Assembly (NCBI GenBank): GCA_965226495.1
Contig: OZ245365.1
Coordinates: 800,001-864,000, forward strand
Direction: 5' to 3'
Length of the DNA: 64,000 nt
DNA from: Candidatus Marinacidobacterales bacterium
GTDB lineage: Bacteria > Acidobacteriota > Vicinamibacteria > Marinacidobacterales > DATDRI01
Shown here: in pieces, positions 10,995-39,956 of the stretch
Numbering within the stretch: position 1 is the stretch's first letter
How the letters are laid out: each line of letters starts with the position of its first letter
Notes under the pieces: generated by a model
Seen by the model: the letters and a program-made list of their open reading frames with translations, nothing else
Databases searched by the model: none
What the model was told of the DNA's origin: nothing
Program-made: the position numbers and the translations under genes

Positions 10995-11459
10995 TATTCT
11001 AAACGAAAACACTCAGGGCTTGATGAAGGCGTCGGCGGCGGCAATCCACGACGAGCCCCGCCAAAGTCTGCATACCTGTCAGGGCTCGATCTTTGCCCAC
11101 CTATCGCTCAGCAAGGGAGGTTTTCGATGGCGGTTCTCGTCTCCATCCCCTATGGACCTACGAAACCGTAAAGGGCGTGTGGGAAGAGCGCTTCGAGCGC
11201 ACCTACGGTTTCTGGCGAGGGCTCTCAGATGCCTCCGTCGCCAAGTATCTCGATTGTAGCCTTTTCGAATCAGGTTTCGTTCGCGTCATGTGCCGAACTG
11301 CAAAGCCGAGTTCCTCGTAGGCTTCTCGTGCAAGTGTAGGGGACTTTATCCATCTTGTGGCGCGAAGCGAACAGCGAGCCTATCGACCGGCTCGAGTTTC
11401 TCGCCCGAGTGCTCATCCACATCCCAGAGCCCAACAAGCATCTGGTTCATTTCTATGGC
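10995..11459 (+). mobile_element. IS91-like element, type B, internally deleted remnant
   Basis: Frameshifted Zn-binding segment (YETVKGVWEERFER, FSCKCRGL.PSCG) joined directly to PIDRLEFLARVLIHIPEP. The same junction occurs at 27333-27480. Confidence 0.85.
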
Positions 11460-12810
11460 TGTCGTTCATCATTATTAAGCCGCCGGAACCGGAGGCCGTT
11501 CGGCTCGACGAGTGGGGACTGAAAGCGTGGTCGACGCACCCGGAAGGCTTCAGGGATCGCACCGCGAATGGGTTCATCCGCTGGACAACGTATACCTCAA
11601 GAGGTCCGGTCACGCACCATCTGGCCGCCGAAAACTGCTCTAAGCTGCCTCGTGCCATTCGTAGCGATGGTGCAGCCCGCCCACTCTCGGAAGCGCAACG
11701 ACTTTTGCGGTCGGTGACGGTCGCGGCGTGACCGATCTCTCGTTCGGCGAGTCTTTGTCGAGTCCCAGGTGACAACGATCCTCGTGATAATAGTCGATGT
11801 AGGACCGGGCGAGTCGGACGAGGTGCCGCTCGCTCAGGACGACGACGCGTTCGAGCATCTCTCGACGACAACTACCGATCCAGCGCTCAGCGGTTCCGTT
11901 TTGCCAGGGGCTGAGAAAAGACGTGCGAACCGGACTCGTTCCCATCGACTTGATGACTTCGACGACGGCCTCGCTGAAGATCGAATCGCGATCGAAGACC
12001 AGATATCGCGGTGCCGTGTCGTATGGAAGCGCGTTACGAAGTTGCTGAATCACCCACGCCGACGTCGGGTTGAAGGTCGGGTTGAAGTGCAAGATATGGC
12101 GACGGCCGTGCTCGATGACGAAGAACCCGTACAGCAGCCGAAGAGACGCGGTCGGGACTGTGAACAGATCCATCGCAACGATGTCGTCCTTGTGGTTATG
12201 CAAGAACGCTACCCATCGCTTCACCTGGTCGGGCTCGGTTGGACGCCGCGGCAAGTATCGCGACACCGTCATCTCGGAGACGATGAAACCGAGCTTCGTG
12301 AGCTCCGCGTGGATGCGCGGTGCGCCCCAACCATCCTGAGCCATCGTCCGGATGAGCCGGCGAATCTCGCCATCCACTCGAGGTCGTCCCAGATAACGCC
12401 TCCGCGAGATCTTTGCCCAGTATCGTCGGAATCGATCCCGATTTCACCGCGCGACCGTGTCCGCGTTGACGATGACCAAGCGACTAGCCCACCCGGGCCA
12501 CGATTGGCGGAGCGCCACCCAGAATTCGCGGTCGGCGTTGTCGAGGAGAGGCCGGGGTCGCTCCTTCTTGAGCATAGCAACCTGTTGCCGTAGCGCGAGG
12601 TTTTCAATCACGAGGTCGGCTCGCCGCCGACACATCGCCCGGATCGCGCGGGCGCCAAGAGACACGAGGACGATGAGAACACGGAGCATGATGCGGCGGA
12701 GTTTGCCCTCTCCCGCGCGTGATCTCAAGCGGGAAATCCGCCGTCCGGTCGGCACAAGAAGAACTCGTAGGTCCTTGGTTTCACTCGCGGACGAGTTTTG
12801 ATGATGGACA
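11460..12810 (-). mobile_element. IS481-like integrase-core IS; transposase (12689-11640) broken by an in-frame TGA at 12446-12444
   Basis: WGAPRIHAEL, MDLFTV, DRDSIF, SPWQNGTAERW, GGLHHRY. Imperfect IRs TGTCGTTCATCA (11460) and TGTCCATCATCA (12810, minus strand). Confidence 0.8.
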
Positions 12811-12866
12811 ACGCGTTCGGGTGAACTGATGGCCTGAACTTCTGGGCGCGCACGTCCGCCTGGCCG

Positions 12867-12946
12867 ATATATGTCGATAAAAATAGATTTTGGCGACATA
12901 TATTGTTGATATGTCGCTCGGAGCGACATAAGCTTCGGATATGTCG
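12867..12946 (+). promoter_or_regulatory. Array of five ATATGTCG/CGACATA boxes upstream of and overlapping the fic start
   Basis: Boxes at 12869, 12894, 12909, 12924 and 12939 form two inverted repeats with 10-bp arms. Confidence 0.6.
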
Positions 12947-14071
12947 CAAGAACCGAATTCGAGCGACCTGAATCGTTGGCGTCCTGACCGGCCTTACAAT
13001 AGGTTACCCCACCTTCCACCCGCGATAGAGCTAGAGACAAAAGCCGTTCTTAGACAGTGTATTACGGCCCGGGCTGCGCTCGCCGGGCTGCGCCATGCGG
13101 CGGAGCTGATCCCGAATCCGAGCATGCTCATCAACACGTTGCCGATATTGGAGGCCCAGGCCAGCACAGAAATCGAGAACATCGTCACTACCGCTGACGC
13201 ACTGTTCCGGCACCTTCACGGTGAGGGGCCGATGGACCGAGCGACGCGGGAAGCCCTGCGGTACCGGGAGGCACTACTGAACGCCTTTGCGTCGATGAAG
13301 ACTCGCCCATTGTCCACCCGAACGGCCGAATCCATCTGCACTCGCATCCGGGGTGTCGAGATGAGGGTTCGTAGGGTGCCCGGCACGGCGCTCGCAAACG
13401 TCGCCACTGGCGAGGTCATTTATACGCCACCCGAGGGCGAACACTTGTTACGGAACCTGATGGCCAACTGGGAGCGCTTCGTGCACGACGAGAGCTCACT
13501 CGATCCTCTCGTTCGCATGGCGGTGGCCCATTATCAGTTCGAAGCCATCCATCCTTTCACGGATGGCAACGGCCGTACCGGTCGCGTGTTGAACAGTCTG
13601 TTTCTCGTCGAGAATGAGCTGCTCGGACTTCCCATTCTCTACCTGAGTCGATACATCATCGAACGGAAGGCTGAATACCAACGCCTGCTTCTGCAGGTCA
13701 CGCGAAACGACACCTGGGAGCCGTGGCTCCTGTATTTGTTACGTGCAGTCGAAGAAACCGCCGAGTGGACCGTCGCCAAGATCGCGGCCGTCCGAGAGCT
13801 CGCAAGTCACACGAGCGACTACGTGCGTCAGGCGCTACCGAAGATCTACACACGCGAGCTCATCGACGTCATTTTTGAACAGCCCTATTGCCGAATTGGC
13901 AACCTCGTCGCCGCCGGCGTCGCGAAGCGTCAAGCGGCCTCTCGTTATCTCAAGGCACTCGTCAAGACCGGGGTTCTGCGCGAAGAGGTTTCGGGGCGAC
14001 AGAAACTATTCGTCCATCCGAAACTCCTGAGGCTCTTGACGGAGGGAAGCAACGAGCTCGTGCGGTACTAA
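12941..14071 (+). CDS. Fic family protein adenylyltransferase (class II-like, C-terminal HTH)
   Basis: HPFTDGNGRTGR catalytic motif, inhibitory motif STEIEN, wHTH-like C-terminus (RQAASRYLKALVKTGVL). Confidence 0.93.
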   Translation: MSQEPNSSDLNRWRPDRPYNRLPHLPPAIELETKAVLRQCITARAALAGLRHAAELIPNPSMLINTLPILEAQASTEIENIVTTADALFRHLHGEGPMDRATREALRYREALLNAFASMKTRPLSTRTAESICTRIRGVEMRVRRVPGTALANVATGEVIYTPPEGEHLLRNLMANWERFVHDESSLDPLVRMAVAHYQFEAIHPFTDGNGRTGRVLNSLFLVENELLGLPILYLSRYIIERKAEYQRLLLQVTRNDTWEPWLLYLLRAVEETAEWTVAKIAAVRELASHTSDYVRQALPKIYTRELIDVIFEQPYCRIGNLVAAGVAKRQAASRYLKALVKTGVLREEVSGRQKLFVHPKLLRLLTEGSNELVRY

Positions 14072-14383
14072 CAAGCGCGAGCTCCTAGTGCTGATGGCGG
14101 AGATTGCGCCGAAAGTACTCTGTCCGGTGTTGGCCCGTGATCTCTAGCTAAGCTAGCGAGACACTGCGCAATTCCCGCGCAGAGGGCTCGTGGGCTCGCC
14201 GCCAAATCCTTTGACTTTTCAGCGTGTAGTGTGCCAAAACCCGATCGAGCGACTCCATCATTATTAGAAAGCCATTCTCGGCGTTGAGAATGCGGAGACG
14301 GCTGTCGGGAAACGAGGCGAGCTCTGATAGGGTGCCAGCCGTCGGCAAACTGCTTGGGAAACTATATTGGCGTTAAAGTCCGC

Positions 14384-14818
14384 TCACGCCGCGTCTCGAT
14401 AGTAATATCGGAGCGTTCCGCCGAGGCGCTCCCGACATCGGATGCGACCGTCGGACCCCAGCGAATCCTGCGCCGAGCAGATGAGTTCGTTATCGAGACC
14501 TTGATGATTCCTCTCCAGATGATAATGGGCGACGAAAGCGCGGATACTCACGCGGAGATGATTCTCTCCCAAGGGAATCATCCGACTAAGGCACTCGCTT
14601 TTCATGGACCGCACAAAGCGTTCGGCGTAGGCGTTCAAATTCGGACTCCTCGCCGGCAGCTTCACCGTCTCCACGCCGACAGCACCGAGTGTGGCGCAGA
14701 ATGATGCTGAAAAGAGCGGGTCCCGGTCGTGAATGAGAAACCGCGCGTCTCGAAGAAAACCGTCAATGGCGTCGGTCAGGTTTCTGGCCACTTGCCTCAT
14801 CCAATCGTCGTAGGGCTG
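14384..14818 (-). pseudogene. Integrase-core transposase, C-terminal fragment
   Basis: HDRDPLF, SPNLNAYAERFVRS, HYHLERNHQG, RLGGTLRYY. 5' part cut off by the IS91-like piece at 14819. Confidence 0.85.
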
Positions 14819-15742
14819 GAACCCTCATATTCATGCCATCGTCACGCGTGGGGTTTTCCTCTCTAACGGACAGTGGCATCCCATCCCTTACGTCGATACG
14901 CACAAAGCCGAGCTTGTCTTTCGCCATAAGCTTCTCCGATTTCTACGAGACCGGGACCTAATTTCCGAAGAGCGCATCGACCTGCTCCTTTCTTGGCAAC
15001 ATTCCGGTTTCAGCGTTCACAATCACACCACCGTTTATCCCAGCGACACCGAAGGGCTCCATCGCCTCGCTTGCTACTTGCAACGCGCGCCAGTGAATCT
15101 GTCTCGACTTCGTTATCATCCGGAATCGGGGCTCCTTATTTATGAGCCCAAGGCCGGCCACGATGTCGACGACAGCGAGCCTATCGACCCACTTGAGTTT
15201 ATCGCGCGCGTGCTCATCCACATACCGGAGCCGAAAAAGCATCTGGTTCATTTCTACCGGACCTACGCCAACCGCGTTCGTTCGTCGACACCCAGTGTTT
15301 GCGACTCCGCGCAGAAGCAGGCAGAGGATGAACCTTCCCCTCCCCGCCGTGCTTTACGAAAAAGATGGTCAGAGCTTATTTACAAAATCTACGAAGTCGA
15401 CCCTTTGACCTGTCGGCAATGCGGGAATCAGATGAAGATCGTCGCTTTCATCACTGAGCCCGCCGTCATTTGTCGTATTTTGGCTCACCGCAAATACAAA
15501 GCCTCCCGACAAAGAGCTCCTCCCCAGCCAACCCTCAACCTCCACTAAACGCCTACCCCGTCAGGACACACTCTCCCTGTGTCTTGAACCAGCCAACGGC
15601 CTTCGTCCTCGCGACGCCGGCCACCTCGCGAGGCCTTTCTCTCTCGCAACACGTTCGATTTATTTCAAACCATCCCGCGTACGAGGATTTTCCTTCAATC
15701 TAGCCCTCCCGCAGGTTGCTCTCGGGATAGAAATGGCTATCT
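14819..15742 (+). mobile_element. IS91-like element, type A, 3' half with oriIS-like end
   Basis: Open frame from NPHIHAIVTRG (HUH motif) through LACYLQRAPV and DPLTCRQCG to the stop at 15548. Terminus GATAGAAATGGCTATC at 15726-15741. Confidence 0.88.
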
Positions 15743-16052
15743 GTTATCTGTCTTCTATGATGAGCGCATCCACGTCCGGCGCTGGCTTGTCCTCGGCTTG
15801 AAAGGAGCCCACGTCGCCGCTGTGGGCGCCATCTTCGGTGGGGCAGAACGCCCTCAAGTGGTCAAGGTGACCGGAAGACGGATTGCGATCCACCTCAGGC
15901 TGCTCTACGATTCGAACCCAGGAGATGATCGGCACGACAAAAAACTCAGAGTCCAGAAGTCAGAAGTCTCGACGGGGGAGGTTGTCGCCGATTCTGACTT
16001 CTGAATTCAGCCGGCCGCCAGGCCGGCATTCTGGGTTTCGTCAAGAAGAAAC

Positions 16053-18680
16053 ATGATCGGTACTACGATCGCCCACTATCGCATTACGGAGAAAATCGGC
16101 GAGGGCGGCATGGGTGAGGTGTATCGCGCCACAGACACCAAGCTCATCCGGGACGTCGCCCTCAAGATCCTGCCGGAGCAGTTCGCCGCAGACAGCCAGC
16201 GCATGACCAGATTCCAGCGGGAGGCAGAGATTCTCGCTTCACTGGATCACTCCAACATCGGCGCTATTTACGGAATCGAAGATGTCGGCAAAACAAAGGC
16301 TTTGGTCCTGCAACTCATCGAAGGTCCTACGCTGGCGGATCGGATTGCCCATGGCCCGATTCCCATGGAAGAGGCGCTGCCGATAGCGCTTCAGATCGCC
16401 GAGGCCCTCGAAGCAGCGCATGAAAAAGGCGTCATCCACCGCGACCTCAAACCGGCCAACATCAAGATCACCCCCGAGGGTCAGGTCAAGGTGCTCGACT
16501 TCGGGCTGGCTAAGGCAATGGAAGATGACCCAAAGCCGTCTCCTGACATGTCAGAGTCGCCGACACTGAGTCTGGCAGCCACCCAGGTAGGTGTGATTCT
16601 GGGGACGGCAGCTTACATGAGCCCCGAACAGGTACGAGGCGCCCCGGTCGATCGGCAGACCGATGTCTGGGCCTTTGGCTGTGTTCTTTTTGAGATGCTT
16701 GCAGGTGAGAAGGCTTTTTCGGGGAGCGACTTCACCGCCGTCGTCAGGGCGGATCCCCAGTGGGACCTGTTGACAGGTGTGACGGTGAGGCTCAGTCGGC
16801 TGCTTGCACGTTGCCTCGCCAAGGAGCCGCGACAACGCTGGCACCACATTGCCGATGTGCGATTGGAGTTGGCGCAGATTCGAGCCGATGGCACGAACGA
16901 AAACGTCCCGTCCTCACCGGCGGACGCTCGCATGCCTCGACGAGCCTATGTCTGGACGGCGACTGCCCTGGTTGCCGGCGCGGCTCTAACCGCCTTCCTG
17001 GGATTTTATCCAACGTCTAACTCGCAACCGACACGCCTGCTGAAGTTCGACTTTGCGTGGCAGGGGCATCTTCGCCCCTGGGACGGTCCCGCCGTTTCTT
17101 CCGACGGCACGATGGTGGTCTACAGAAACTCGGGAATGCTGTGGATTCGCGATCTGGACGATACGCGACCCCGAAAACTCGAGGGAACAGAGGGGGGTGG
17201 CCAGCCCTTCTGGTCACCTGACGGCAACTCCATCGGTTACTTCACCAACCGTCATCTGCACAAAGTACCGACAACGGGTGGGCCAAGTACGACTCTGTGC
17301 CGCTTGCCGGCAGACTTCTGGGGAGGTGCTTTCTGGACGGATAACGGCAGAATCCTGATCGGCCAGGGGCCGAAGGGGATCTTCGAGGTGGCTGAACATG
17401 GCGAGGTGCCGAGACTTGTGCTGGAGCCGGCGGCTGAGTACGGAGACAAATGGCTCTACTGGCCGCGGCTGCTTCCAGATGGGCACAGCCTGATGTTTGT
17501 CAGTCTCAAGGAAGACGGCACCTCGGAAATCGCAGTTGTTTCATCGGGAGATCGCATCTCGGTCGTCCAGCACCCGGAGTTTCTGAGCTGGCCCAGCTTT
17601 GCTGCCACTGGACACATCGTCTACGAACGTGGAGCCTCGACACCTCGCGGAGTGGCCTCCGTGAGTATCTGGGCTCTTCCTTTCGACGGCAATGAACTGA
17701 CCCGAATCGGAGAGCCTTTTCAAATCGTCCCCGAGGGAACCTCTCCGACAGTATCGTCGACCGGCATGCTCACTTATCGGTCCCGTCCCACGACGCAGAA
17801 CAGCCTCGTCTGGGTCAATCGCGATGGAGTTGTTCGGCAAACCATAGGACGGCCGCAAGACCTGATCCGGAACCCGAGCATTGCACCGGACGGAAGCAGG
17901 GTAGCGGTCGAGGGCGTGGACACGAGCGGCTTTGACATCTGGATTCACGACGATTCGCGGGGGACCAAGCAGCGTCTGACCTCGGATCTCTCGGAGAATC
18001 GCCAACCGGTGTGGGCACCAGACGGTCACCGGATTGCGTTTGGTTCTGCCGGGAGCGTGTTTTTGTGTGACGTCTCCAGTGGTGCCCAACCGGAGAAACT
18101 GATCTCGGTCGACGCAGTCGAAGAGATCTATCTGGACTGGAGCCAGGACGGGGAACATCTGATTTTCCACTACATGCCCAGGGATCAGAGTCATCGCGAC
18201 ATCTGGCAGGTCTCCCTTTTCGACAACGCACAACCCATGCCTCTGGTAAGGAGTCCGGGAGACCAGACGCTTCCGCAAATTTCCCCAGATGGACGGCACG
18301 TCCTCTACCAGTCCAGCGAAGCCGGGAACTACCTTCCGGATGTGTTTTTGGTGGAGTTTCCGGGCGGAGGTAACAAGAGGCAAGTGTCGATCGCCGGAGG
18401 AACTCATGCTCGCTGGAGCCCTGACGGTGACGAACTATTCTATGTTGATCCCGCCAACAACCTGGTAGCGGTCAGCTTCGATGCTGAGACGGCAACACTG
18501 GGACGGGCGGTGCCGCTTTTCCGCTCTGCGGACGTCGACACGGACCTGTCGCGAAATCTCCTATCGTTTCTCTACGATGTCGGACCGGGGGCGGACCGCT
18601 TTGTCGTGGTGCAGTCTCCGGGCGGCGGTCGGGTGATGGTGGTCGAAAACTGGATCCGGGAATTCGCGGAAAGGCAGTAA
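16053..18680 (+). CDS. Ser/Thr protein kinase with TM segment and PD40/TolB-like beta-propeller
   Basis: GEGGMGEVY, VALK, HRDLKPAN, DFG, YMSPEQ; repeated WSPDG motifs. Confidence 0.95.
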   Translation: MIGTTIAHYRITEKIGEGGMGEVYRATDTKLIRDVALKILPEQFAADSQRMTRFQREAEILASLDHSNIGAIYGIEDVGKTKALVLQLIEGPTLADRIAHGPIPMEEALPIALQIAEALEAAHEKGVIHRDLKPANIKITPEGQVKVLDFGLAKAMEDDPKPSPDMSESPTLSLAATQVGVILGTAAYMSPEQVRGAPVDRQTDVWAFGCVLFEMLAGEKAFSGSDFTAVVRADPQWDLLTGVTVRLSRLLARCLAKEPRQRWHHIADVRLELAQIRADGTNENVPSSPADARMPRRAYVWTATALVAGAALTAFLGFYPTSNSQPTRLLKFDFAWQGHLRPWDGPAVSSDGTMVVYRNSGMLWIRDLDDTRPRKLEGTEGGGQPFWSPDGNSIGYFTNRHLHKVPTTGGPSTTLCRLPADFWGGAFWTDNGRILIGQGPKGIFEVAEHGEVPRLVLEPAAEYGDKWLYWPRLLPDGHSLMFVSLKEDGTSEIAVVSSGDRISVVQHPEFLSWPSFAATGHIVYERGASTPRGVASVSIWALPFDGNELTRIGEPFQIVPEGTSPTVSSTGMLTYRSRPTTQNSLVWVNRDGVVRQTIGRPQDLIRNPSIAPDGSRVAVEGVDTSGFDIWIHDDSRGTKQRLTSDLSENRQPVWAPDGHRIAFGSAGSVFLCDVSSGAQPEKLISVDAVEEIYLDWSQDGEHLIFHYMPRDQSHRDIWQVSLFDNAQPMPLVRSPGDQTLPQISPDGRHVLYQSSEAGNYLPDVFLVEFPGGGNKRQVSIAGGTHARWSPDGDELFYVDPANNLVAVSFDAETATLGRAVPLFRSADVDTDLSRNLLSFLYDVGPGADRFVVVQSPGGGRVMVVENWIREFAERQ

Positions 18681-18696
18681 ACGGGAAGCAGCTGTC

Positions 18697-19143
18697 CTAA
18701 CCCTGGGCTGAGCCTCCGTAGGTCCCCTTCAAGTACTCTTCGAGCATATCCAGCGACGTGACCAGTTTCTGCAGGCCGCACTGAATCATGAGATTTACGA
18801 TCTGGTATTTGTAGTGCAGTCTCCAGTCGGTGTAGAGACCGACACAGGGTTTGCCGATACCGTGAGCATAGCCGAGTTCCCAGGCCGTGCCACTGTCGAC
18901 GCAGAGGCCATTCAGGTTAGCCACGACCAGGTCGGCATTGGAGATCGCCTCTCTGTCCTCCTCAAAGATTTTGGGAACGTCAGCGGGACCCTTCAGCGGC
19001 GTACCGTCCCGCTGTGGCAGGTATGTCGTGAAGCCGGCTCGCTGCACCCGAGCGTCGATTTCCGTGTTCCACCAACGTTCTCCTTCATTAAACAGGGGAC
19101 CAGCTATGTAAGCATGCACCAGACTCTCTCCTTTTCGTGGCAA
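18697..19143 (-). CDS. Nucleoside 2-deoxyribosyltransferase / nucleotide N-glycosidase family
   Basis: YIAGPLF, YLPQRD, DSGTAWELGYA, NLMI. Confidence 0.9.
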   Translation of the reverse strand: MPRKGESLVHAYIAGPLFNEGERWWNTEIDARVQRAGFTTYLPQRDGTPLKGPADVPKIFEEDREAISNADLVVANLNGLCVDSGTAWELGYAHGIGKPCVGLYTDWRLHYKYQIVNLMIQCGLQKLVTSLDMLEEYLKGTYGGSAQG

Positions 19144-19188
19144 GACCTGTTGGATCGTTCCGGAGTTACGCCGCGTCCGTTTGTTTCG

Positions 19189-19995
19189 TCAGTTCGCGCT
19201 GACGCAGTTCGTCAGATACGGTGTCTCGGTGTACTGATCGGGAACTCGCATCAGGAACGCTTGCGCGGCCTCGAGCACGGCCTCATTCTCGGGAAACTCG
19301 ACCTGAAATCCGTTGAATTGTCTCAGGGCGTCTTCGTAGATCTGTTTCGCCTCTTCCGACGCCAGAAACACCGTTACATCGGTACCGCTGGGGGCACGCG
19401 CAAACGCAGCGTCCAGTTCCTCCCGTATAGCCGTGGTCGACATGATGGAATCTACCGGCCTCGGGTAAGGGGGATAGCCGCCGATTGAGGTGGAGTTGAT
19501 TTCGAGCCGTTGGATGGCCTTGCCATATGTGGGATCGGTCTGACCGTAGACGGTCGCGGGAAGCTCGGTCAGCGTCATCATTCCACCACACATGGCACAG
19601 GGCTCCAGAGTCGTGTACAGCCGGTAGCCCTTCAGATCAAACTGCTCGGTGTTGTGGAGGTAGTTCGTGATCAGACGGACTTCGCCATGCTGAGACTCGT
19701 TGCCGGTCACATTGACTGAGTTTCTGGCCCAGCACCGCACCTGATGCTGGGAATCGACCAGGACTGAACCGATGTTGTAGCCGCGCCCAGAGGAACTTTC
19801 GTCCTGCCAGTCTTTGAGGATCACCGCATAAGCGAGAAGGGCGAAGATCTCATCTCTCTCCTGCTGAACAGGGTCGATCGCCTCCTGAGATTCAGGTTGG
19901 CTTGGCGGGTTCGGCGGAGGCTCGCTACAGCCCACCGTCGCTGTTGCCAAAGACAAGGCTACAATAACTCTCGAGTAAAACGTAGAAACTGCCAA
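19189..19995 (-). CDS. Zn-dependent nucleoside/nucleotide deaminase with predicted lipoprotein signal
   Basis: HGE and YTTLEPCAMC motifs. Probable TTG start at 19995 after a purine-rich RBS, then a hydrophobic stretch ending TVGC. Confidence 0.82.
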   Translation of the reverse strand: MAVSTFYSRVIVALSLATATVGCSEPPPNPPSQPESQEAIDPVQQERDEIFALLAYAVILKDWQDESSSGRGYNIGSVLVDSQHQVRCWARNSVNVTGNESQHGEVRLITNYLHNTEQFDLKGYRLYTTLEPCAMCGGMMTLTELPATVYGQTDPTYGKAIQRLEINSTSIGGYPPYPRPVDSIMSTTAIREELDAAFARAPSGTDVTVFLASEEAKQIYEDALRQFNGFQVEFPENEAVLEAAQAFLMRVPDQYTETPYLTNCVSAN

Positions 19996-20064
19996 AGTCT
20001 TCCCCCTTCTGCGACTGATAGATTCTTTTAAGACTTCTCTGCAAGTTACGTAGAAGATCAAGAG

Positions 20065-20265
20065 CTAAGCAACGGCAGTCATGTATACCTCCGGGAAGTA
20101 TTCGTCTGCAAGCTGAGTTGCGGCGGACATAATAGCGAAGCCCTTATTGGTGACTCGCCACCGACGGGTACGAGGGACCTTGGCAATGAGGGAATGAGCG
20201 TGAAGGCGTTGGAGGAGACGTGACGTTTTGGCGCTCTGGCTTCGACGCTGGTGGGGATTGCCGGA
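20065..20265 (-). pseudogene. C-terminal wHTH remnant of a putative mobile-element protein
   Basis: SAKTSRLLQRLHAHSLIAKVPRTRRWRVT resembles the C-terminus of a ~500 aa mobile-element protein family often labelled MarR. The rest is missing. Confidence 0.5.
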
Positions 20266-20412
20266 GGCTCTGGAGCCCGTATTGTGCCAAAACTCGGCCG
20301 ACGTCAAGAATTCCGAGCGTTTGCAGAGAGGACCAAAAGAAACGAAAGGGCCAGGACAGGTCGATTCATGGCTCAGCCTCCTAAATTGGGGATGTATTGT
20401 ATGCTCTGGCGC

Positions 20413-28025: not shown

Positions 28026-28039
28026 GCTATCTGTTCCGC

Positions 28040-29705: not shown

Positions 29706-29905
29706 GTCAATCGGATCAATCCGCAGGGTGATGTTGCCCATGGACGATCCGAGGTACAGAAGCAGTACGAGACGATCTTTGCCAATCGCACAGCAAATCC
29801 ATCGGCTCAACCGTTTCACGCTGACATCACCATTCGTTTTCTGAGACCAGACGTCGCCTTTCTCGACGGTAAATGGCAAGTAGACAGTCCGGACGGCAAA
29901 AGTCT
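29706..29905 (+). pseudogene. Fragment of an NTF2-like (SgcJ/DUF4440) protein
   Basis: INPQGDVAHGRSEV...IRFLRPDVAFLDG. Confidence 0.6.
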
Positions 29906-29914
29906 CGGTTCCTG

Positions 29915-30808
29915 TTACGGCTTTGCCGGGCTCTCACCGTTCGTGGTAACCGCCAGGGGTCGCACCGGAGAAGAATTCCAGCCGCGGGATCGCATCGCCT
30001 TTTCGAGCTCCGCAATCCGGAGGTTCGCCGGGGGGTGCGAGCGAAAGTATTCCCTCGGTCCTTCCGCCACGACCCTTCCCATCTCATCCACTGGCGTCGA
30101 AGCAGGTTGGTTGGGTCGACCCTCGTTCTCGCCGAGGCGCCGGTAGAGATCGATGGCTCCCTGCGGGGAATAGCCCGCCGCCACCGCATAGCCCAACCCC
30201 ACGAGGTCCGCCTCCAGCTCTTTTTCCTTGTTGTACCCCGCTTGAAAGAGAGTTATCGGAATCGAAGCAATCGCATGTGGCAAAGACAAACCGAGCTTGC
30301 GCGCAGCAAGCGCATACTGGAGCCTTTCGATGGCGTGACGACGGTCCACATGCGCGATCTCATGACCTAGGACGGCTGCCATCTCGTCCTCCGATTCCAT
30401 TGCGTCGTAGAGTCCTCTGAGTATGATCACCTGACCGCCCGGCAGGGCGAAGGCGTTCATCGCAGACCTCGCCTGAACATGGAAGTGATAAGGGATGCGG
30501 TTTCTGTCTACTTGCGCCGCAAGGCGCTTCCCAACTTGCCGAGCGTAAGCCTCGAGCGCGCGGTCGTTTTCCGTCCCTGCGCTCCTTTTCAGGCCGTACC
30601 GCTGTGCCAAGCGGCGGCCAACCTCTTCTTCCTCCTGATCGCTGACGCGGGTTGCGGTTAGTGGCAATCTCTCTGCTTGACGCTGAAAGTCCGCCACCAG
30701 GCGCATCACCGCACCAAGCCCGACCACTGTATCCCCCTGCCCACGCTCGGTGAGATAGACACCGCCCAGCAGTGCCGCCAGAACAAGCGCCATCGCGACT
30801 TTGCGCAT
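29915..30808 (-). CDS. M48 family metallopeptidase
   Basis: NAFALPGG, HEIAH, ELEAD, FRSHP. Confidence 0.9.
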   Translation of the reverse strand: MRKVAMALVLAALLGGVYLTERGQGDTVVGLGAVMRLVADFQRQAERLPLTATRVSDQEEEEVGRRLAQRYGLKRSAGTENDRALEAYARQVGKRLAAQVDRNRIPYHFHVQARSAMNAFALPGGQVIILRGLYDAMESEDEMAAVLGHEIAHVDRRHAIERLQYALAARKLGLSLPHAIASIPITLFQAGYNKEKELEADLVGLGYAVAAGYSPQGAIDLYRRLGENEGRPNQPASTPVDEMGRVVAEGPREYFRSHPPANLRIAELEKAMRSRGWNSSPVRPLAVTTNGESPAKP

Positions 30809-33800
30809 CTACCGATCCAAGACGAGCCTTCTCCACGCCTCCCGGTAGCGGGCGTAGAAGAAAGAAACCAACACCAAGACCGATCCCAGGACGATAAAGG
30901 CGACGATACGCTCCAAGGTCTCTAGTCTCCACACGTCCAGAACGAGGATCTTGGCAGTACTCAAGAGAAGAAGTGCCAAGGCAAAGAGACGGTAAGAGCG
31001 CTCCTTTACCAGCATTCCGAACACGAAGATCGCCAGTGCTTCGACCGCCCAGCCGGCAGTGAGACTCGCTCCCAGCCGGAATTCGAGCGCGAGCAAAACG
31101 GTGACGAGCCCGGCCGCCGAGAAAAAAAAGAAATGTCGGGCGGACAGATCGCAGGTCCGAACGAGCCGGCGAAACCACTGGCTTCCCGAAAGAGCCTCGC
31201 CTTTCCGTTCATCGGGGAAGGCGGTGGCGAAGGCATAGCCTGCCAACAAGACCGCGGCCACGACACCGACTGTTACCGCCCGCAGGGAGCCGACGATATA
31301 GAAGTTCTCCAACACCGCTCGGAACAACACCAAGAGCGCGACCAGCACCCCCTGAATCCGGAACTCTCCGACCTGACTCCGTCGCCCGAAGCCTGTCATG
31401 AGCACCGCGACGACGGCCCAAGCGATGGCCACCCACGCCGGGGTTAGCTCGAACCGCAGGATGGCGAGCAACGCGATCAGTCCAAGCGAAGAGTAAAAAG
31501 CCGGAACGTCCCGGGAAGATTCCCCCGAGGTCAACTTTCCAGCCAGCGCGTCGCTGCGCAGCACCGCAAAAAGGTAATAAAAGAGAACTACTAAAGGCGC
31601 GGTGCTCGCTAGCCTCGCCGACACAGGCCCGAACTGATCCACCGTGTTTAGGTTGGCAACCAGCAGCCGGACGAACGTGGCTCCCGCTAGGAGATGCCCC
31701 TGCCAACGAAAGTCCGATCGTCCAGAGGCTCGGCCGATTTCGACGAGAGCGAGCGTCAAGATAGCCCACCCGATGGCGACGCCGAGGGGCGAGAGCTCGT
31801 ACCACATCAGCAGCGCCAAGATGAGAGTGGCGGCAGGCGCGTTCAGCCAGTGTTGCAGCTGACCATCGGCGCCGCGACTCAACGGGGCCCGTCTCGCCGC
31901 CTCACCGTAGAGGTACAGGACCACCGCGACTGCCCCGGCCACGAGAGTGCGCGGCGCGTCCCCTTCGCTCGGCAAGTCGACGAAGACAACCCTCGCCGCG
32001 GCCAGAAGCGCCGTGAGCTGCGCCTGAAGACCCAGGTGGAAATCGTGACGCCAAAGTCCTAGCGCATGGAAGACGTGAGCTGCGCCTGAAGACCCATGGA
32101 AACCCCCGCCGCCAAGCCCACCGACCACCAGGCCCGAGGCAAAATCAACCAACTCGTACCGATGACGATGGCCCAAGCCGCATAGCTATAAAAGGTGAAC
32201 AGAACAGGAGGAGTCATTCGGATCTCGCCCACTTCCACTGTGGGCTGCGCTCCGCGCCGATTCTCGCAAAAGACGTACAGCATGACGGATGCGGCGATCA
32301 GGACCCCGGCCGAGGTGTTCCAGGTTGGTTCTCGGTACAGCTCGTCCCAAAGTTGTGGATAACTAATGATGGCGATTCGAGCCACTGCCGAGATCAAAGT
32401 AAAGTGCGAGATGCGGCTCAAGTGGGTTTGGCCCCATTTTCGGTAGCCCGAATAGAGGAGAAAACCGAGGGAGAGCCAAATGATTACCAGCCATTCGGAA
32501 GGAGTGAGCAACCAAGTGCCCGCCAGGGCCATCAACCATCCAAGGTACACGTAAATCGTTGTCGAGGCCCTTTCGGGTTCGGTTCGAATCTGGGAGGCGT
32601 ACTTTCGACCGAGATACAACGTATTGAAAAAGAAGGCCGCCGCCGTGACCACGAGGAGGATTCCGTCCTCGAGCTCGAGAAACCCTTTCTGGCCGAGCCT
32701 CGGTATCACCCGATCCAAGATAAGGTAAGCAGTGAGTGGAACCGTTGTGAGCCAGGCCAGCCTCCGAAAGTGAATCTCCTCGAGGCGATAGCCCACGATC
32801 AGAAAGATCTGGCACTCGAGTAGCCACATCACTACCCAATGGTCCGCCGCTGCGGCGTAGTACGTGGACAAGTAGGGTGCGGCGGCGACTACCAGAAACC
32901 CTCCAGTGGTGCTGAGGAGAAGGTAGCTGGACCTCCGGGCCAATCGCTGACCGAGAAAGGCCAGAGCGAAGTAAAGACTCCCGAGGATGAAAAGGAACCA
33001 GAACCGCCATTCTGGATGGTAGGATTGGTATCCCGAGAGCGCCAAGTAGCCGAGTACATTGAGAATGACCGCCAGTCCAAGAAACGCGTCTTGCTGTTCG
33101 TTCTTACCTCGTCGTAGAAAATGGGAAACCGTGAAGAGTACCCAGTAGCAAGTTAGCAGCGCCGTGCTCATCGAGTACTCGGCGAAAGCTCCTTTTTCCG
33201 CACCCATGGGCTCGATGATGGGCCGTAGCCAAGCATAGTGATTGGCGTATGTGCCGACGACGGCGATGCTCTCCAACCCGTACCAATCCATTTTCCAGAG
33301 CACGATGACCACCGCCAGCGAAAGCACCAGGGTCGCAAGGAGTGTGTACGATTCCACACCGTAAAAGATGATGGTGAAGTACCCGAGGGCAACGGCAAAG
33401 CCGGTAACGAACTGCGACCGGTATCGGAGCGAGTGAATGACGATACCCGCCGCCACACCAAGCAACAAAGCAAAGCCCAAACTCTCGTCCTGGACGACCT
33501 TGGTGGCCTCGACGCTGTACATTGCGTACGCGAGGAAGTAAGCGAGCCCCCAGCCTCCACTCAGCAGCACCCGGCCAAACGCCTGGTACCGGGATCGGCG
33601 CTCCAAGTTCGAGCCACCGGCAACGGCCGCCACGCTGATGACCAAGCCTAGGAGCACCTTGCCCCACGGTCCCATTTTCTGGACGGTGTAACCAAGGAAG
33701 AGCGCAACACCAATGATGAGGATGGCCATGCCGATCTTGAGCAGCCAGTTCGCCCCAAGGGTCTCTTCCAAGTCGAGCAGCTGCTGTCTCCGCGCCACCC

Positions 33801-34233
33801 TGGACCGCTGGCGCTCGGCGGCCGTGGGCTGCGCAAGAACGGGCGTCCCTCTAACGGGCGCCGGCACCTGTACGACGGGCTTTGTAGTTGCGGCGGGAGT
33901 CTCGGTGGGCCTCGGGAGCGGTGGGGCTTCGGCCGGCGGCGAGGGCTCGGGCGGCGATGGCGTGGATGGTGCGTCGGGAGCGGCAGGCGGCTCGATTGTG
34001 GGTGGTGAGGGTGTCTTGGTGGCATCCTCCGTGACAACCCTCGTCTCAGGGGTGTCGCCTAATGTCCGCCTGGCCCTTAGCTCCACCACCACCCTTCGCC
34101 CTAGGGCCTCGACCCTGTTGCCGAGTGAGTCGAGCTCCTTGGTGTGCTTCGTTTCGATCTCGCGCACGCGGCGGGAAAGAGTTCGATACCAAATGAGAAG
34201 GCCGACGGCGAGGAGGAAGGTCAAAAACGACAT
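30809..34233 (-). pseudogene. DUF2339 multi-pass membrane protein, frameshifted at ~32070-32100
   Basis: LEETLGANWLLKIG at the N-terminus and KILVLDVWRLETLERIVAFIVLG at the C-terminus. The two ORFs join at a short templated insertion. Confidence 0.8.
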
Positions 34234-35418: not shown

Positions 35419-35490
35419 TCTCTTTCCCAGTGTCTCATAGCTTCACGAAGCCTCGGTGCCGTCCGCTCGAATTCCGAGTTAGACGGCGCG

Positions 35491-36609
35491 AATTCATAAA
35501 GTAAGTGCAACACAGCTCCCGGATGAGGTGACCTGGAATGTGCCACGATTCCTCAAACGACCAAGAATGGGGACTCGCTAATGACTTATTACCAGATCAC
35601 CTCGGAAGAACGCTACACCATCGCGGCGCTGCGACGGGAGGGATTTTGCTCGGCCGAGATCGCGCGGCGAGGTCAGGAGCGCCACCAAGAATGGGGACTC
35701 GAGACTTATTACCAGATCACCTCATCGCGGCGCTGCGACATCTCGAGAGAGGTCAGGAGGAACAGCTCACCTAGTGATGGATGCTACCGGCCGAGCAAGG
35801 CCATCGAGAGAACGAACGGACGACGCTCGCGGTCTCGCCGGAACCAGTACTTCACAAAGGCCGACTTTGCCCTGGTGGAGAAGAAGCTTAAGGCCGACTG
35901 GAGCCCAGAGCAGATCTCCGGCCACCTGCGCCTTCACGGCGAGCTCTCGATCAGCCACGAGACGATCTACACCCACGTTTGGCGGGACAAGGAGGCCGGA
36001 GGACATCTATACCGCCACCTTCGATGCTCGCCCAAACTTAGACGCAAGCGCCACAACAGCTACGACAGCCGAGGCCGCCTGGCCGGGAAGCGTCACATCT
36101 CCGAGCGGCCGTCTTGTATCGACAAGCGCCGTGCCGTTGGCCACTGGGAGATTGACACCGTGGTAGGAAAAGACGCGCCGGACTGCGTCACCACGCTCGT
36201 GGAACGAAAGACGGGCTATGCGCTGATCGGCAAACTGTCCGACCGCAGCATGTTCGGCACTAGCCAGCGAACGAAGATGTTGCTCCGGCGGGTGCCGGAT
36301 CAGGTCAAAGACCATCACCGCGGACAATGGCACGGAGTTCCACGACTACGAATCCGTCGAGGAAGCGACCGGCGTCAAGTTCTACTTTGCAACTCCCTAT
36401 CACTCATGGGAGAGAGGCAGCAACGAGAACTTCAATGGCCTGCTACGACAATACCTGCCGAAGCGCACCAGCCAAGCAGCGCTCACGCAACGCCACTGCG
36501 ATGGTATCGCAAAGAAGCTCAACACACGGCCCCGCAAGAGGCTCGGTTACCGCACACCGGAGGAACGTTTCCATGGGAACTAACGAATGGTGCGCTTCAA
36601 ACTTGAAGT
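35491..36609 (+). mobile_element. IS30 family element, transposase disrupted
   Basis: YQITSEERY, WSPEQIS, ISHETIY, GHWEIDT; second frame ITADNGTEF, WERGSNENFNGLLRQYLPK. Imperfect IRs TTCATAAAGTAAGTGCA / TGCGCTTCAAACTTGAA. Confidence 0.9.
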
Positions 36610-36955
36610 CACAGCAGCGTTGACTTCGAGGGTCATCAGGCGCCGGAACTTCTCATATTCCGACCACTGGGAGACGTCTGCATTCTCGTGCTAACGCCAG
36701 CGATGCCTTCGAGGTCTGCCGATATGTAGACCTTGAGCGACTGCTGAGCGCCAGCGGGAGATGTGAGGCATACGGATAGAACGACGGCAGCTAGTGCGAT
36801 GTTATTCATAAGTCCCCAAAGGTCTCATAGACGCTCGTATCGGTCCACTGCAATCAGCTCTCGTCATCAGCGTTACGCGGGAGCTTTCTCGAGAACGTTT
36901 GGCTCAGCGGTGAGGCGAACCGTGTGGCCCGGAACCACGGCCCGCCCAAAGGGTA

Positions 36956-37015: not shown

Positions 37016-37288
37016 CCCAGATCGAGCGGATCGGTCGATTCGACCGCCTTGGATCGCTCATCAACCCTTGGCGCAAGAACGGGGACAACGACACCTTGCT
37101 ACCCATCATCCGGGGAACGATCGCCGAGCGCCTGTTTAGGACCGTAAAGAGACGCGAGTAGCTAGAGTTCCTACTCGCGGCGGCGCCCGACTTCTCGGAG
37201 TACAGCTTCGCGGACGAGGAGCCCCTACCCTGCCGGAGCGGCTAGGCGTTGTTTGACGTCGTACATACAATGCAATACACTACCGTTA

Positions 37289-37570
37289 ATGAAGTTTGAG
37301 TGGAATGAAGAAAAGAACCTCTCGAACTTTCGCAAACATGGAATCTGGTTCGAAGAGGCCCAAACTTTATGGTCCGACGAATCGAGCTCCGAGTTCTTCG
37401 ATCCCGAACACAGCGAGAACGAGGATCGGTACATTCGGATTGGCTATTCGAGCGTTCCCCGCTTACTGCTGGTGGTTTTCTGCGAACGTGCCGGCGGCGA
37501 TGTTATCCGGGTGATTTCTGCGCGACAGGCTTCTGCAAAGGAGAGGTGGCAATATGAAGAAGGAATATGA
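37289..37570 (+). CDS. brnT: BrnT family toxin (DUF497)
   Basis: MKFEWNEEKN...KHGIWFEEA...EDRYIRIG...IRVISARQA. Confidence 0.92.
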   Translation: MKFEWNEEKNLSNFRKHGIWFEEAQTLWSDESSSEFFDPEHSENEDRYIRIGYSSVPRLLLVVFCERAGGDVIRVISARQASAKERWQYEEGI

Positions 37571-37802
37571 TCTGAAGAAGCTGAAGAAGAGACCGGGACC
37601 GGTAAAAACCGACAAGGATGCGGTAAAGCTTCCGGTCTCACTTCGGTTGGACGGATCTGTTTTGGCGGCAATAAAGACCGAGGCCGATCGGCTAGGAATT
37701 CCTTATCAGACGCTAATTGGGAGCATCCTTCATCGATACGCCACGAACGAATTGCTCGATCGCCGCAACCTCGACCTTGCCAAGTCGATTAGCGCATCTT
37801 GA
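37554..37802 (+). CDS. brnA: BrnA/CopG-like antitoxin
   Basis: MKKEYDL, VSLRLD, GIPYQTLI. Overlaps brnT. Confidence 0.88.
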   Translation: MKKEYDLKKLKKRPGPVKTDKDAVKLPVSLRLDGSVLAAIKTEADRLGIPYQTLIGSILHRYATNELLDRRNLDLAKSISAS

Positions 37803-38440
37803 GGCGGATCCTTCGCAATGTTGTCACTCTGGCAAGGCAACCCATTCATGCAGCCGTGACCATGCCTCCATGAGTTCGTCACCACGATCGCCTGGAAGCG
37901 CGCCGTCGGGTACGCGCCGAGCTATTCCCTATCGACCCTCTACCGTCCTATCATCCCCGCGGTGAAATGCGCGCCTTGAAAGAGCCCGTCGCGGTGTCAT
38001 GTCGGCGATCATCATTCCCATGGTGAGTAGAGACAGCACGTCCGAGCGCACGCCATTCTCGACGACCGTGTTCCCGTGACAGCGAGTCGCGTGCACCTCA
38101 AAGTTTGTCGAGCCCATCAGATACCAGCGGACTTTCTCACGCCTACTGAGCTATGCCTACGAGGCGATGTTGGTGCCGGTCGCAAATAGAACGCGGGAGG
38201 CTCCGTGAGCCGGCGCGGCGCGGCTTCGTCCGATGCCACAGGTTGTTCGATTTAAGGACGATACGGGGAGTGCGCGCGCATCGCTCTCCGACTGGATTCC
38301 AACGTGATGACGAACGTAGGTAAACCAATCGGCCCGGCGTACCAGGCCGGAGATGATGCGCGGGCGGTGATGCTTGTCGCGACGCTAACCGTCGTCTCCG
38401 TCGCGGTGGTACTGGCGTTCTCGCGGTTGGAAAGAGGGCG

Positions 38441-39151
38441 ATGGTGACGGAAACGCCGAAGGTTCTCGACGTGAATGTGACGATCTCTCTGGGCTCAGGG
38501 CGTGAGCGCACCACCGTCGCGGCCCGGTTTGCGCTGACGAAGGGAATCCTGGTCATCTTCGGCCCTTCCGCGACCGGCAAGACCCTGACGGTTCGCGCCG
38601 TGGCCGGCCTACGACCCGCTATTGGCGCGATTCGCGTGGGCGGCGAGACTCTTCTCGACAGCGAAGCGCAACGAAACGTTGCCCCGGAACATCGCCGTGT
38701 TGGTTATGTGCCCCAACACGTGGCGCTCTTCCCACATCTCAATGTTCGTGACAACGTGGCGTTTGGCTTGCGGGCGCGTGGAAACGGAACCGGCTCGCGG
38801 CCACTCGCCGAGGAATGGCTGGCGCGACTCGGGGTGGAGAACTTGGCGGATCGTATGCCGCATCGCCTGTCGGGAGGGGAATCGCAACGCGTCTCGCTCG
38901 CCCGCGCCTTGGCACCAGAGCCACGCCTGCTACTACTCGACGAGCCCTTCGCCAGTCTCGATCTCACGACTCGGCGCGAGATGCGCCGCGTGGTGCGGGA
39001 AGTTCAAGAGAGCAGCGGGATCCCAATGGTTTTCGTTACCCATAGTCCGCGCGAAGCGATCGAGATGGGGGATCACTTGGTTCGCTACGGGCTGGGTGGA
39101 AGCCAAGAAGAAGGCTTGCCGGGGGACCTCATCGAAAGCGAATCGGAATAG
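38441..39151 (+). CDS. modC: Molybdate ABC ATPase, second copy (orphan)
   Basis: Identical to 9859-10569 except P16S. Confidence 0.88.
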   Translation: MVTETPKVLDVNVTISLGSGRERTTVAARFALTKGILVIFGPSATGKTLTVRAVAGLRPAIGAIRVGGETLLDSEAQRNVAPEHRRVGYVPQHVALFPHLNVRDNVAFGLRARGNGTGSRPLAEEWLARLGVENLADRMPHRLSGGESQRVSLARALAPEPRLLLLDEPFASLDLTTRREMRRVVREVQESSGIPMVFVTHSPREAIEMGDHLVRYGLGGSQEEGLPGDLIESESE

Positions 39152-39154
39152 GCG

Positions 39155-39571
39155 TTAAGCGGCGTCGAAGAATTCCCCGATCTTGCCCCGGATCTGATCG
39201 CGGATGCGCCGGAACTCCTGGCGAATCTCTTCGTCGGAGCCGGTGGCCGCCGCCGGATCTTCGAAGGGCCAGTGAAACCGTTGCACGTTCCCCGGGTATA
39301 CCGGGCACACTTCCTCGGCACAGAGCGTGATCACCGTCCCGATTCGATCCGAAGGGATCTCGTCGATCGCCTTCGATCGGTGCGAGGAAATCTCGATGCC
39401 CAGTTCCTGCATCACTTCTCGGGCAAATGGATTGAGGTGGGTGGGTGCCGAGCCGGCGCTGTAGATTTCTCGATCCTTGGGCGCAACCGCTCGAGCGAGT
39501 CCCTCCGCCATTTGGCTGCGCGCGGAATTGGCCACACAAAGAAAGAGGACGCCCGCCCGCGATTCCCCCAT
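39155..39571 (-). CDS. arsC: Arsenate reductase, second copy
   Basis: Same protein apart from the N-terminus (MGESRAG versus MADSPTG). Confidence 0.9.
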   Translation of the reverse strand: MGESRAGVLFLCVANSARSQMAEGLARAVAPKDREIYSAGSAPTHLNPFAREVMQELGIEISSHRSKAIDEIPSDRIGTVITLCAEEVCPVYPGNVQRFHWPFEDPAAATGSDEEIRQEFRRIRDQIRGKIGEFFDAA

Positions 39572-39577
39572 GGCCGT

Positions 39578-39956
39578 ATTCTAAACGAAAGCACTCAGGG
39601 CTTGATGAAGGCGTCGGCGGCTGCAATCCACGACGAGCCCCGCCAAAGACTGCATACCTGTCAGGGGCTCGATCTTTGCCCACATATCGCTCGCAAGGGA
39701 GGTTTTCAATGAGGGATTTCGTCCCTATCCCCTATGGACACCGTGGCGGCGTCTACTGGCCGCGTCCCACCAAAGGACGGCTGTCCACCCATTCTATGGC
39801 GCCTATGCCAACCGCGTTTGTTCGTCAGCACCGCGTGTCAGCGACTGCTTTTTTGCCTCACAATGTGTTTGACCAAATTCGAAACGTTCCGCGTGCAAAG
39901 AATTTGCTTCAATCTAGCCGTCCCACGGACGCTCCTCGGGATAGAAATGCCTATCT
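39578..39956 (+). mobile_element. Miniature non-autonomous IS91-like element (type B)
   Basis: Upstream region plus first ~19 codons (MDTVAASTGRVPPKDGCP), a short internal piece, and the terminus GATAGAAATGCCTATCT (39940-39956). Left boundary approximate. Confidence 0.8.

Follow-up and report, generated by a model that had tools for sequence, protein, structure and literature searches.

The window analysed here is a 64,000-nt stretch (G000:C1:800001-864000) of a 6.34-Mb acidobacterial genome that was obtained as a single contig in a metagenome-type assembly, and it contains a nest of broken elements of the IS91 family of insertion sequences (ISs). Nine pieces of such elements, which encode parts of a Y2 HUH transposase and fall into three sequence types named as A, B and C, were located at 10998–39958 by self-comparison, Pfam and tblastn (Table 1). 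None of the nine is a complete copy (0/9), and B2, the piece that retains both ends, has a length of only 379 nt. We consider it probable that these pieces were produced by local copying through the termination errors already known for this family, and that they were subsequently broken up inside a largely acquired island. An original prediction made from the letters of the sequence had listed nine HUH pieces of three types with none of them complete, and the results of self-comparison, Pfam, NCBIfam and tblastn agreed with it; its coordinates were correct within a few bases, and the starts given for type B, 10995 and 39578, were right to 3 nt when compared with the break of homology in the related genome G001 at 10997/10998.

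The assignment to the IS91 family came from the domain content of the pieces. The PF04986 and PF14319 matches across A-left, A-right, A-del and B-right show a zinc domain followed by Y2_Tnp, which is the IS91-type arrangement, with Y2_Tnp at 14814–15545 (2e-17) and Zn_Tnp_IS91 together with the N-terminus of Y2_Tnp at 28470–29221. The translation of A-right contains NPHIHAIV and HFYRTYANR, which we take to be the HUH and Y motifs, respectively. The NCBIfam IS91 profile was matched from 11 to 197 by A-left (115.2 bits) and from 151 to 355 by A-right (71.2 bits), both being fragments that score below the cut-off of 125, and a full-length relative (L004) reached 152.5 bits against the equivalog cut-off of 125 for NF033538. 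The 460-aa transposase of L004 was used as the ruler for placing the pieces by tblastn. Pieces of the same type are nearly identical to each other: 14820–14980 and 29061–29221 (100%), 11311–11459 and 27333–27481 (100%), 15092–15745 and 24330–24983 (99.4%), 24067–24330 and 28756–29019 (99.2%), and 15595–15751 and 23910–24066 (98.1%), and types A and B are only ~82% identical. The remaining IS91-family open reading frames (ORFs) of the genome, with 433, 447 and 520 aa, belong to other subtypes, and C' is 92.6% identical to 3797514–3797312 of the same genome, which lies inside the 520-aa ORF. It was also noticed, from the comparison of 28436–28942 with L008, L011, L017 and L019, that the part corresponding to the first ~100 aa of L004 is, in most relatives, out of frame with the transposase body; this points to a small ORF of its own that lies upstream of tnpA and overlaps it, comparable to orf121 of IS91, and that has been joined to tnpA in L004.

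Table 1. Positions of the IS91-family pieces, the neighbouring blocks and the repeated flank in the window; aa numbers refer to the L004 transposase.
Feature	Position	Strand	Description
Direct repeat copy 1	9756–11157	+	ABC ATPase 9859–10569, low-molecular-weight (LMW) phosphatase 10573–10989 (minus), first 160 nt of B; Pfam ABC_tran, LMWPc
B1-left	10998–11459	+	ter-side part of type B with internal deletions; aa 64–100, 112–142 and 339–364 (tblastn); cut at 11459 by the IS481/IS3-like element
IS481/IS3-like element	11460–12780 (right end approximate)	-	transposase ORF 11643–12443; Pfam rve_3, HTH_21
IS481-like fragment	14226–14819	-	Pfam rve_3; cut at 14819 by A-right
A-right	14820–15745	+	ori-side 926 nt of type A, aa ~222–460 and ori end, then GTTATCTGT; Pfam Y2_Tnp 15–179 of 183; ori palindrome GGGATAGAAATGGCTATCT; aligned to L004
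Cargo block	15752–20325	.	Ser/Thr kinase and PD40 repeats (16053–18680), nucleoside deoxyribosyltransferase, deaminase (Pfam)
Foreign block	20326–23909	.	FG-GAP/ASST gene(s) and C-terminal part of a second ASST (23085–23939, minus); ends exactly at the 157-nt A end
Solo type A ori-end miniature	23910–24066	+	157-nt non-coding end including the 9-nt GTTATCTGT as behind A-right; also 100% to 24833–24983 over 151 nt
A-del	24067–24983	+	type A without the ter-side 316 nt; starts AGTTCC; internal 313-nt deletion; ori end intact; aa 117–203 and 309–460; in tandem with the 157-nt miniature, immediately after its ori end
Cargo	24990–27332	.	cyclase gene 25103–26035; N-terminally truncated acyl-CoA ligase (minus) (Pfam)
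B-right	27333–27793	+	type B without ter side; starts TTCC; ori end intact, then GTTC; aa 116–173 (weak) and 339–416 (tblastn); Pfam Y2_Tnp 146–180; B1 internal deletion also present
C'	27831–28028	-	inverted internal fragment of the third IS91-family type; aa 173–220 (tblastn)
Ori-tip footprint CTATCTG	28027–28033	+	at the junction of C' and the ABC scrap; five bases foreign to both neighbours
ABC-transporter ATPase scrap	28034–28270	+	237 nt; Pfam ABC_tran 69–131 of 137
Sulfatase scrap	28271–28439	+	~170 nt; Pfam Sulfatase 234–292 of 301
A-left	28440–29221	+	782 nt from the ter side of type A, with the Zn domain and the beginning of the catalytic domain; aa 13–268; cut at 29221
PLP-decarboxylase scrap	29222–29627	-	~400 nt; Pfam profile 170–297 of 375
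C''	~29628–29710	-	inverted scrap of an IS91-family transposase C-terminus, sharing the frame of the decarboxylase scrap; aa 413–460 at 29710–29579, 50% identity, E 9e-8 (tblastn)
IS30-family element	35487–36613	+	NCBIfam IS30 157.7 against cut-off 80; ~10 near-identical genome copies, 99.6%
Direct repeat copy 2	38338–39958	+	1242 nt of ABC/phosphatase flank and B2 (39580–39958)
B2	39580–39958	+	379-nt miniature with both ends; aa 13–46; ori end then GTCC
Phosphatase gene 5' part, third partial copy	43574–43786	+	~210 nt, ~90%; immediately left of 43859, where G002 is again syntenic

The two ends of the element are different, and the pieces retain them unequally. The right (ori) end has the form ...CGGGATAGAAATG(G/C)CTATCT with a GATAG/CTATC palindrome, the subterminal form being GGGATAG-N6-CTATCT, and this end (GGGATAGAAATGSCTATCT) is conserved in five copies of the window and in 32 ends of relatives. 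The left (ter) end is unrelated to it, so that the element has two distinct ends and not terminal inverted repeats. The 6.34-Mb genome has five matches to the ori-end motif, and all are inside the window, at 15724–39958 (~25 kb); this clustering is far above chance. They stand against two or three ter-side ends in the window. Four of the five ori ends are on ter-less pieces, and for each of these a parent with 98–100% identity continues across the breakpoint. Furthermore, A-del and B-right, each matching the parent of its own type, start within 2 nt of one and the same internal GTTC, and positions this close to any GTTC make up only 2.5% of the element. The bases behind the five ori ends were found to be GTTA, GTTA, GTTG, GTTC and GTCC. 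At the left end of B, homology to G001 stops at ...CCATGGCGGTAT before TCTAAAC, i.e. at 10997/10998, and no canonical site was seen at this end (TAT/TCTAAAC); the alternative left end at 11064 was ruled out by the same break. A-left begins ~36 nt or more inside the left end common to three A-type relatives, and it therefore lacks the ter end. The CTATCTG footprint between C' and the ABC scrap indicates that an ori end was formerly present there and was later deleted almost wholly; behind such an ori tip the ABC scrap is a target-side flank and not DNA captured at the ter side.

The 8-mer CTATCTGT of the ori tip was counted seven times in the window, where its frequency in the whole genome would predict 0.7. 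A further CTATCTGT with TC at 42837–42844 (minus) lies within an Ldh_2 gene and may be due to chance, given the 0.7 expected per window. A second (T/G)ATCTGT was seen behind the ori end CTATCTGT at 15746–15751 and 24061–24066 and at L041, L061 and L065, i.e. at independent loci of three genomes, and perhaps it is a recurrent tiny duplicate of the ori tip left as the footprint of abortive re-initiation.

The ends were also counted in relatives, using 12 other genomes with G007 left out; the reversed pattern as control gave 0 matches. Of 32 ori ends, three have a near-complete transposase, two have at least 150 aa, four have short remnants, and 23 are solo, with no transposase within 1.9 kb; the solo ori end of 20–180 nt is thus the commonest form. 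CTATCT is followed by GT in 30/32 ends, GT having been built into the search pattern, and the full tetranucleotide is GTTC in seven and GTCC in five of them, with a rough expectation at ~60% GC of about 2 and 3, respectively. Internal deletions like those of B1, B2 and A-del are also present in relatives, e.g. L015 and L022.

The reality of the junctions was ascertained with public sequencing runs. Six runs contained at least half of the sampled words of 23000–30500, and the contigs of four of these six, from four studies, were compared with 10500–30400; these are k-mer contigs in which single junctions are visible and long-range order is not, and the source sample is possibly among the four runs, so that the independence of all four is not assured. 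Zero-difference contigs were found to cross the entry of the A-right ori end into the kinase block at 15745/15746 (15722–16124), to run through the A-del ori end, the cyclase and ligase genes and 30 nt of B-right (24954–27362, 2409 nt, identical in three runs), and to cross the chain of C', ABC scrap, sulfatase scrap and A-left (27831–28634, 27977–28634 and 27977–28469), the junction 28439/28440 being bridged in four runs. The internal joint of B2 (27526>27679) recurs in one public contig of run X23. The original prediction had regarded a collapsed-repeat consensus as an equally serious explanation of the locus. Collapsed or chimeric repeats in a long-read metagenome assembly would agree with the metagenome-type origin of the single contig and its split genes (DUF2339, T2SSE and FG-GAP/ASST), with six junctions that lie outside the contig pieces listed (11459/11460, 14819/14820, 23909/23910, 24066/24067, 27793/27794 and 29221/29222) and with one X19 contig that diverges from the window left of 27831. 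Because collapsed repeats would not yield junctions between unique DNA and internal IS positions in independent short reads, the zero-difference contigs from the runs of four studies speak against it: misassembly at 15745, 24983, 27332, 28028, 28270 and 28439 is unlikely, the artefact being rejected for these seen junctions, and for the locus as a whole it is highly improbable. The nest is fixed across the samples examined. The X19 contig (933 nt) matches 27831–28634 with one difference, and its first 129 letters are unlike the window (27702–27830); this may be a strain or structural variant.

The pieces lie in an island of ~33 kb (~10998–43858), where in the same-genus relative G002 ~3.9 kb separate the phosphatase flank from the homologue of 43859. 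The synteny with G002 (87%) runs through the ABC (ATP-binding cassette) operon and the phosphatase gene to a B remnant at the same junction, is followed by ~3.1 kb of other DNA and rejoins at 43859; this break and return of synteny mark ~10998–43858 as specific to the lineage of the window. The left flank of the island has itself been duplicated, as 9756–11157 and 38338–39739 are 98.1% identical, and the first copy is in its native context because the ABC operon continues upstream of it. Counting the third partial copy of the phosphatase gene, copies of the left flank stand at both edges of the island and also inside it. For the pre-insertion site of repeat copy 2, the T2SSE match in G002 was found to be a paralogue (42–67% aa) with no usable synteny. 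The repeat periods of 28582, 16022, 14241, 9238, 8315 and 4689 nt interleave, which ruled out a single tandem duplication and a strictly nested series. The B remnants of the window (10998–11459 and 27420–27799) and the first 66 nt of B are 94–98% identical to L022 of G002, and the adjoining flank only 87%; there is no B at the phosphatase junction in G001. The higher similarity of B than of its flank points to gene conversion, to a later replacement or to separate arrivals of B at this junction.

The DNA between the pieces was compared with 54 other genomes of the order, including G001 and G002 of the same genus and G026 of another family (family f2, genus g9). The block at 20326–23909 matches G026 over 3587 nt at 95% identity, and the other four g9 genomes searched at 89–92%; no match was found in G002, and G001 gave only 72% over ~270 nt. 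The second arylsulfotransferase (ASST) gene of this block is cut at 23909 without its N-terminal ~280 aa and is intact with 556 aa in G026, where the block continues at both ends. Contigs at 4–10x the depth of the window in the compared runs cover 20329–23909 with 2–5% differences and continue past 23909, which means that these samples also contain a carrier of the intact version. The exact-match scans of genome_contigs and metagenome_contigs for the junction of the truncated ASST with the miniature gave 0 matches, as did that of metagenome_contigs for the A-type ori end. On the g9 side of the break at 20326, the sequence GGGATAG resembles an arm of the ori palindrome; it was treated as a possible coincidence, many motifs having been inspected. 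At 21545–21756, FG-GAP and ASST form two overlapping ORFs (501 and 509 aa) against one ORF of 899 aa in G026 (L072, 2336–5035), due either to a frameshift or to an indel error in the window copy.

The other blocks gave less. No close DNA match was found in the 54 genomes for the kinase/nucleoside deoxyribosyltransferase/deaminase, Fic, cyclase/ligase and M48/DUF2339 blocks, the first of which (15752–20325) matched only kinase-domain paralogues at 66–72%. The acyl-CoA ligase is cut at 27332, its AMP-binding match starting from profile position 46, and its best relative in 30 related genomes is 34% identical, too distant for a simple-insertion test. The ABC scrap is 88.6% identical to 4111677–4111913 of the same genome and 91% to G002, the pyridoxal-phosphate (PLP) decarboxylase scrap 85.5% to 3856035–3855637 and 89% to G001, and the sulfatase scrap gave no DNA match in 55 genomes. 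The array at 27794–28470 does not occur as an array in any of the other genomes of the order (0/54), its pieces matching only separately. As had been predicted, four neighbouring genes are truncated at the pieces, namely the integrase at 14819, ASST at 23909, acyl-CoA ligase at 27332 and PLP-decarboxylase at 29222, as judged from profile coverage and the G026 homologue. The original prediction had proposed a search for donor loci in the same genome; the whole-genome search found no near-identical donor for any cargo piece, the best matches being paralogues at 85–92%, and capture from the present genome is rejected for lack of a near-identical outside copy. The scraps are 85–91% identical to their nearest genes and the IS pieces 98–100% to each other, so that the scraps are older or foreign. 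From these comparisons the cargo appears to be mainly horizontally acquired, partly from another family of the same order (f2), to which the block at 20326–23909, the IS481-like fragment and the BrnT/BrnA pair point, and not copied from host genes.

Other insertion sequences are present in the island. The IS481/IS3-like element scored below the cut-off of both NCBIfam IS481 and IS3, has ~10 further genome copies at ~80%, and loose ends were seen at 11459 in public contigs. For the IS481-like fragment, G018, G026 and G054, all from another family, contain many copies at 97–99% identity; the public contigs of all four runs continue otherwise after 14819, and the continuation of the IS481-like element that they carry was not found behind A-right. 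The IS30 copy has 69 extra bases (35670–35738) against the other genome copies, and a short internal repeat at 35560–35603/35684–35723. A gene for a Fic-domain protein (12941–14071) and a BrnT/BrnA toxin-antitoxin pair (37166–37799, and 97% to G026 at 37247–37849) also lie inside the island. In both the DUF2339 (30812–34233) and the T2SSE ATPase (39989–41744) gene, the coding sequence is divided between two ORFs that overlap in different frames, due either to decay into pseudogenes or to assembly indels.

For the IS91 family, the account available in part from PMC13181058 describes transposition that starts at oriIS and ends at terIS, targets GTTC, CTTG or GTCC beside ori, cleavage of the ter end at GTTC in 3/4 studied members, and failure to stop in 1–14% of events, in which adjacent DNA is then carried. 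For IS801 in its native host, the part of PMC3189936 consulted gives right-end fragments of 229, 360 and 679 nt in 26% of events, each bounded by a tetranucleotide resembling its own left end, and the carrying of 290–1431 nt of upstream DNA. We infer that similar errors would have made the daughters found here from two parents at the site, A, which lacks the outer part of its left end, and B, adjacent to the phosphatase gene. Both misfires would begin with replication from the ori (right) end. A premature stop within the element would leave right-end partials such as A-right, the 157-nt miniature, A-del and B-right, and a run-through past ter would carry upstream DNA, as B2 with its 1.24 kb of ABC/phosphatase flank. 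Insertions of the IS481-like and IS30 elements, recombination between repeats and deletions would afterwards have interrupted the parents and piled up blocks among the pieces. Several observations weigh against this history. No intact A or B transposase is present in the genome, and neither the window nor the genome contains the lost N-terminus of ASST. A canonical tetranucleotide stands at the start of only 2/4 ter-less pieces, A-right and the 157-nt miniature having none, and neither GTTC nor CTTG is found at the left edge of the copied flank (38338, CGTACC). None of the junctions is a simple insertion with both flanks, so that target-site duplication is without a readable case, and since the direct-repeat pairs interleave, they allow neither a simple nested history nor the derivation of any single ordered one. 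The asymmetry of the ends may be inflated, as the ori motif is possibly better conserved than the ter-proximal one; of six ter-proximal matches confirmed by co-location with A-left homology, five are ter-side-only, G026 has four ter-proximal against two ori matches, and ter-side-only pieces (A-left and B1-left) occur in the window too.

A plain decay of complete A, B and C copies by deletions, IS insertions and recombination, in which rolling circle had no part in making the fragments, would account for the occurrence of ter-side as well as ori-side fragments, for the internal deletions in B1, B2, A-del, L015 and L022, for an ori end shrunk to a 5–7-nt tip through GCT microhomology, for other ISs at the breakpoints 11460 and 14819 and for the many direct-repeat pairs flanking blocks, as expected from recombination. 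The authors on IS801, in the part of PMC3189936 consulted, came to a like conclusion in retrospect, as they ascribed most genomic fragments to reorganisation and not to one-ended transposition, which also counts against termination errors. Nevertheless, decay leaves unexplained that one and the same GTTC lies within 2 nt of two truncations that arose independently in different subtypes, that the ori end is kept in 4/4 daughter copies, and that 23/32 ori ends of relatives are solo against five confirmed ter-side-only fragments; the identity of daughters and parents (98–100%) points to recent copying rather than long decay, and we regard decay as an unlikely source of the fragments.

The original prediction had suggested a site at which fragments may be captured repeatedly and genes shuffled, as by Helitrons. 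Its rolling-circle part gained from the ori/ter asymmetry, the common GTTC, the co-duplication of the flank and the foreign 3.6-kb block at an ori miniature. Repeated capture, as known from Helitrons or ISCR elements, would mean that a ter-less A reads through at each move and adds slices of its neighbourhood on the ter side, the array at 27794–28439 being built by hops and ori miniatures carrying multi-kb blocks such as 20326–23909 between genomes. A-left does lack the outer left end of three relatives and has the unrelated scraps C', ABC' and sulfatase' directly on its ter side; the strongest point is that the 3.6-kb block native to g9 (5/5 genomes) ends exactly at an ori miniature within a gene that is intact in G026. 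B2 carries its 1.24 kb of upstream flank, and read-through capture is documented for IS91, IS1294 and IS801 in the parts of PMC13181058 and PMC3189936 consulted. Against these stand the uniqueness of the scrap array (0/54), the tetranucleotide rule holding in 2/4 pieces with no pseudo-ter tetranucleotide at 20326 or 38338, the junction of ASST' and miniature without exact match in genome_contigs or metagenome_contigs, the ABC scrap on the target side of an ori tip, the lower identity of the scraps (85–91%) than of the IS pieces (98–100%), and the want of an own-genome donor. Serial capture is a possible reading, which we think improbable. A bolder form of it, which we consider still less probable, is that the ter-less ori ends (miniatures of ~60–160 nt) are working mobile units that use a transposase in trans, drag multi-kb blocks between co-occurring acidobacterial families and land preferentially beside existing ori ends, stacking foreign blocks and scraps; if so, they would be a prokaryotic counterpart to Helitron gene capture, acting between genomes.

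With termination errors as the preferred reading, the aberrant products of the IS91 family, i.e. right-end miniatures and elements with upstream flank, which are known mainly from plasmids and pathogens of Proteobacteria, would also dominate among the copies in large marine acidobacterial genomes. The IS91 pieces mark the seams of a mosaic island in which several blocks are 95–99% identical to genomes of another family, and if ori miniatures do carry such blocks, this would be a route for gene flow among co-occurring lineages.

Eukaryotic Helitrons, as described in the part of PMC4778049 consulted, likewise move by HUH rolling circle, terminate imprecisely and capture fragments of host genes. 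Unlike in Helitrons, in which a Rep (HUH) protein is fused to a helicase domain, no Pfam helicase family was matched by any ORF scanned in the region, the transposase pieces giving only Zn_Tnp_IS91 and Y2_Tnp; L004 matches only IS91-family and ISCR models of NCBIfam, the element is prokaryotic and IS-sized, and the scraps lie between separate broken copies and not within one bounded element. In ISCR1 and the complex class 1 integrons, a ter-less IS91-like element carries upstream DNA, and a partial duplication of the flank brackets the variable region. The 1.4-kb repeat found here resembles that bracketing duplication. Unlike in ISCR, the model of ISCR clade Ia (NF052416) scores 55.7–166.4 bits against a cut-off of 925, which places the element outside this clade, and in contrast to ISCR1 integrons, no integron or resistance genes were seen, the cargo consisting of metabolic and signalling genes and scraps. 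From IS801, IS91 and IS1294 the element differs in its acidobacterial host, in a looser target after GT (GTNN), in having no intact A or B copy left and all ori ends of the genome within 25 kb, and in that solo ori ends of 20–180 nt prevail in relatives. It shares with them the Y2 HUH transposase with an N-terminal zinc domain and, as far as the sources consulted in part describe these elements, ori and ter ends that differ from each other, an ori end with a subterminal palindrome, the co-transfer of upstream DNA, which is 0.3–1.4 kb there, and, in part of the copies, a tetranucleotide of the GTTC/GTCC type beside ori and a right-end piece starting at a GTTC-like site. The locus fits the known misfiring of the IS91 family better than a new gene-capture system, and it is a well-documented example of the former rather than a new mechanism.

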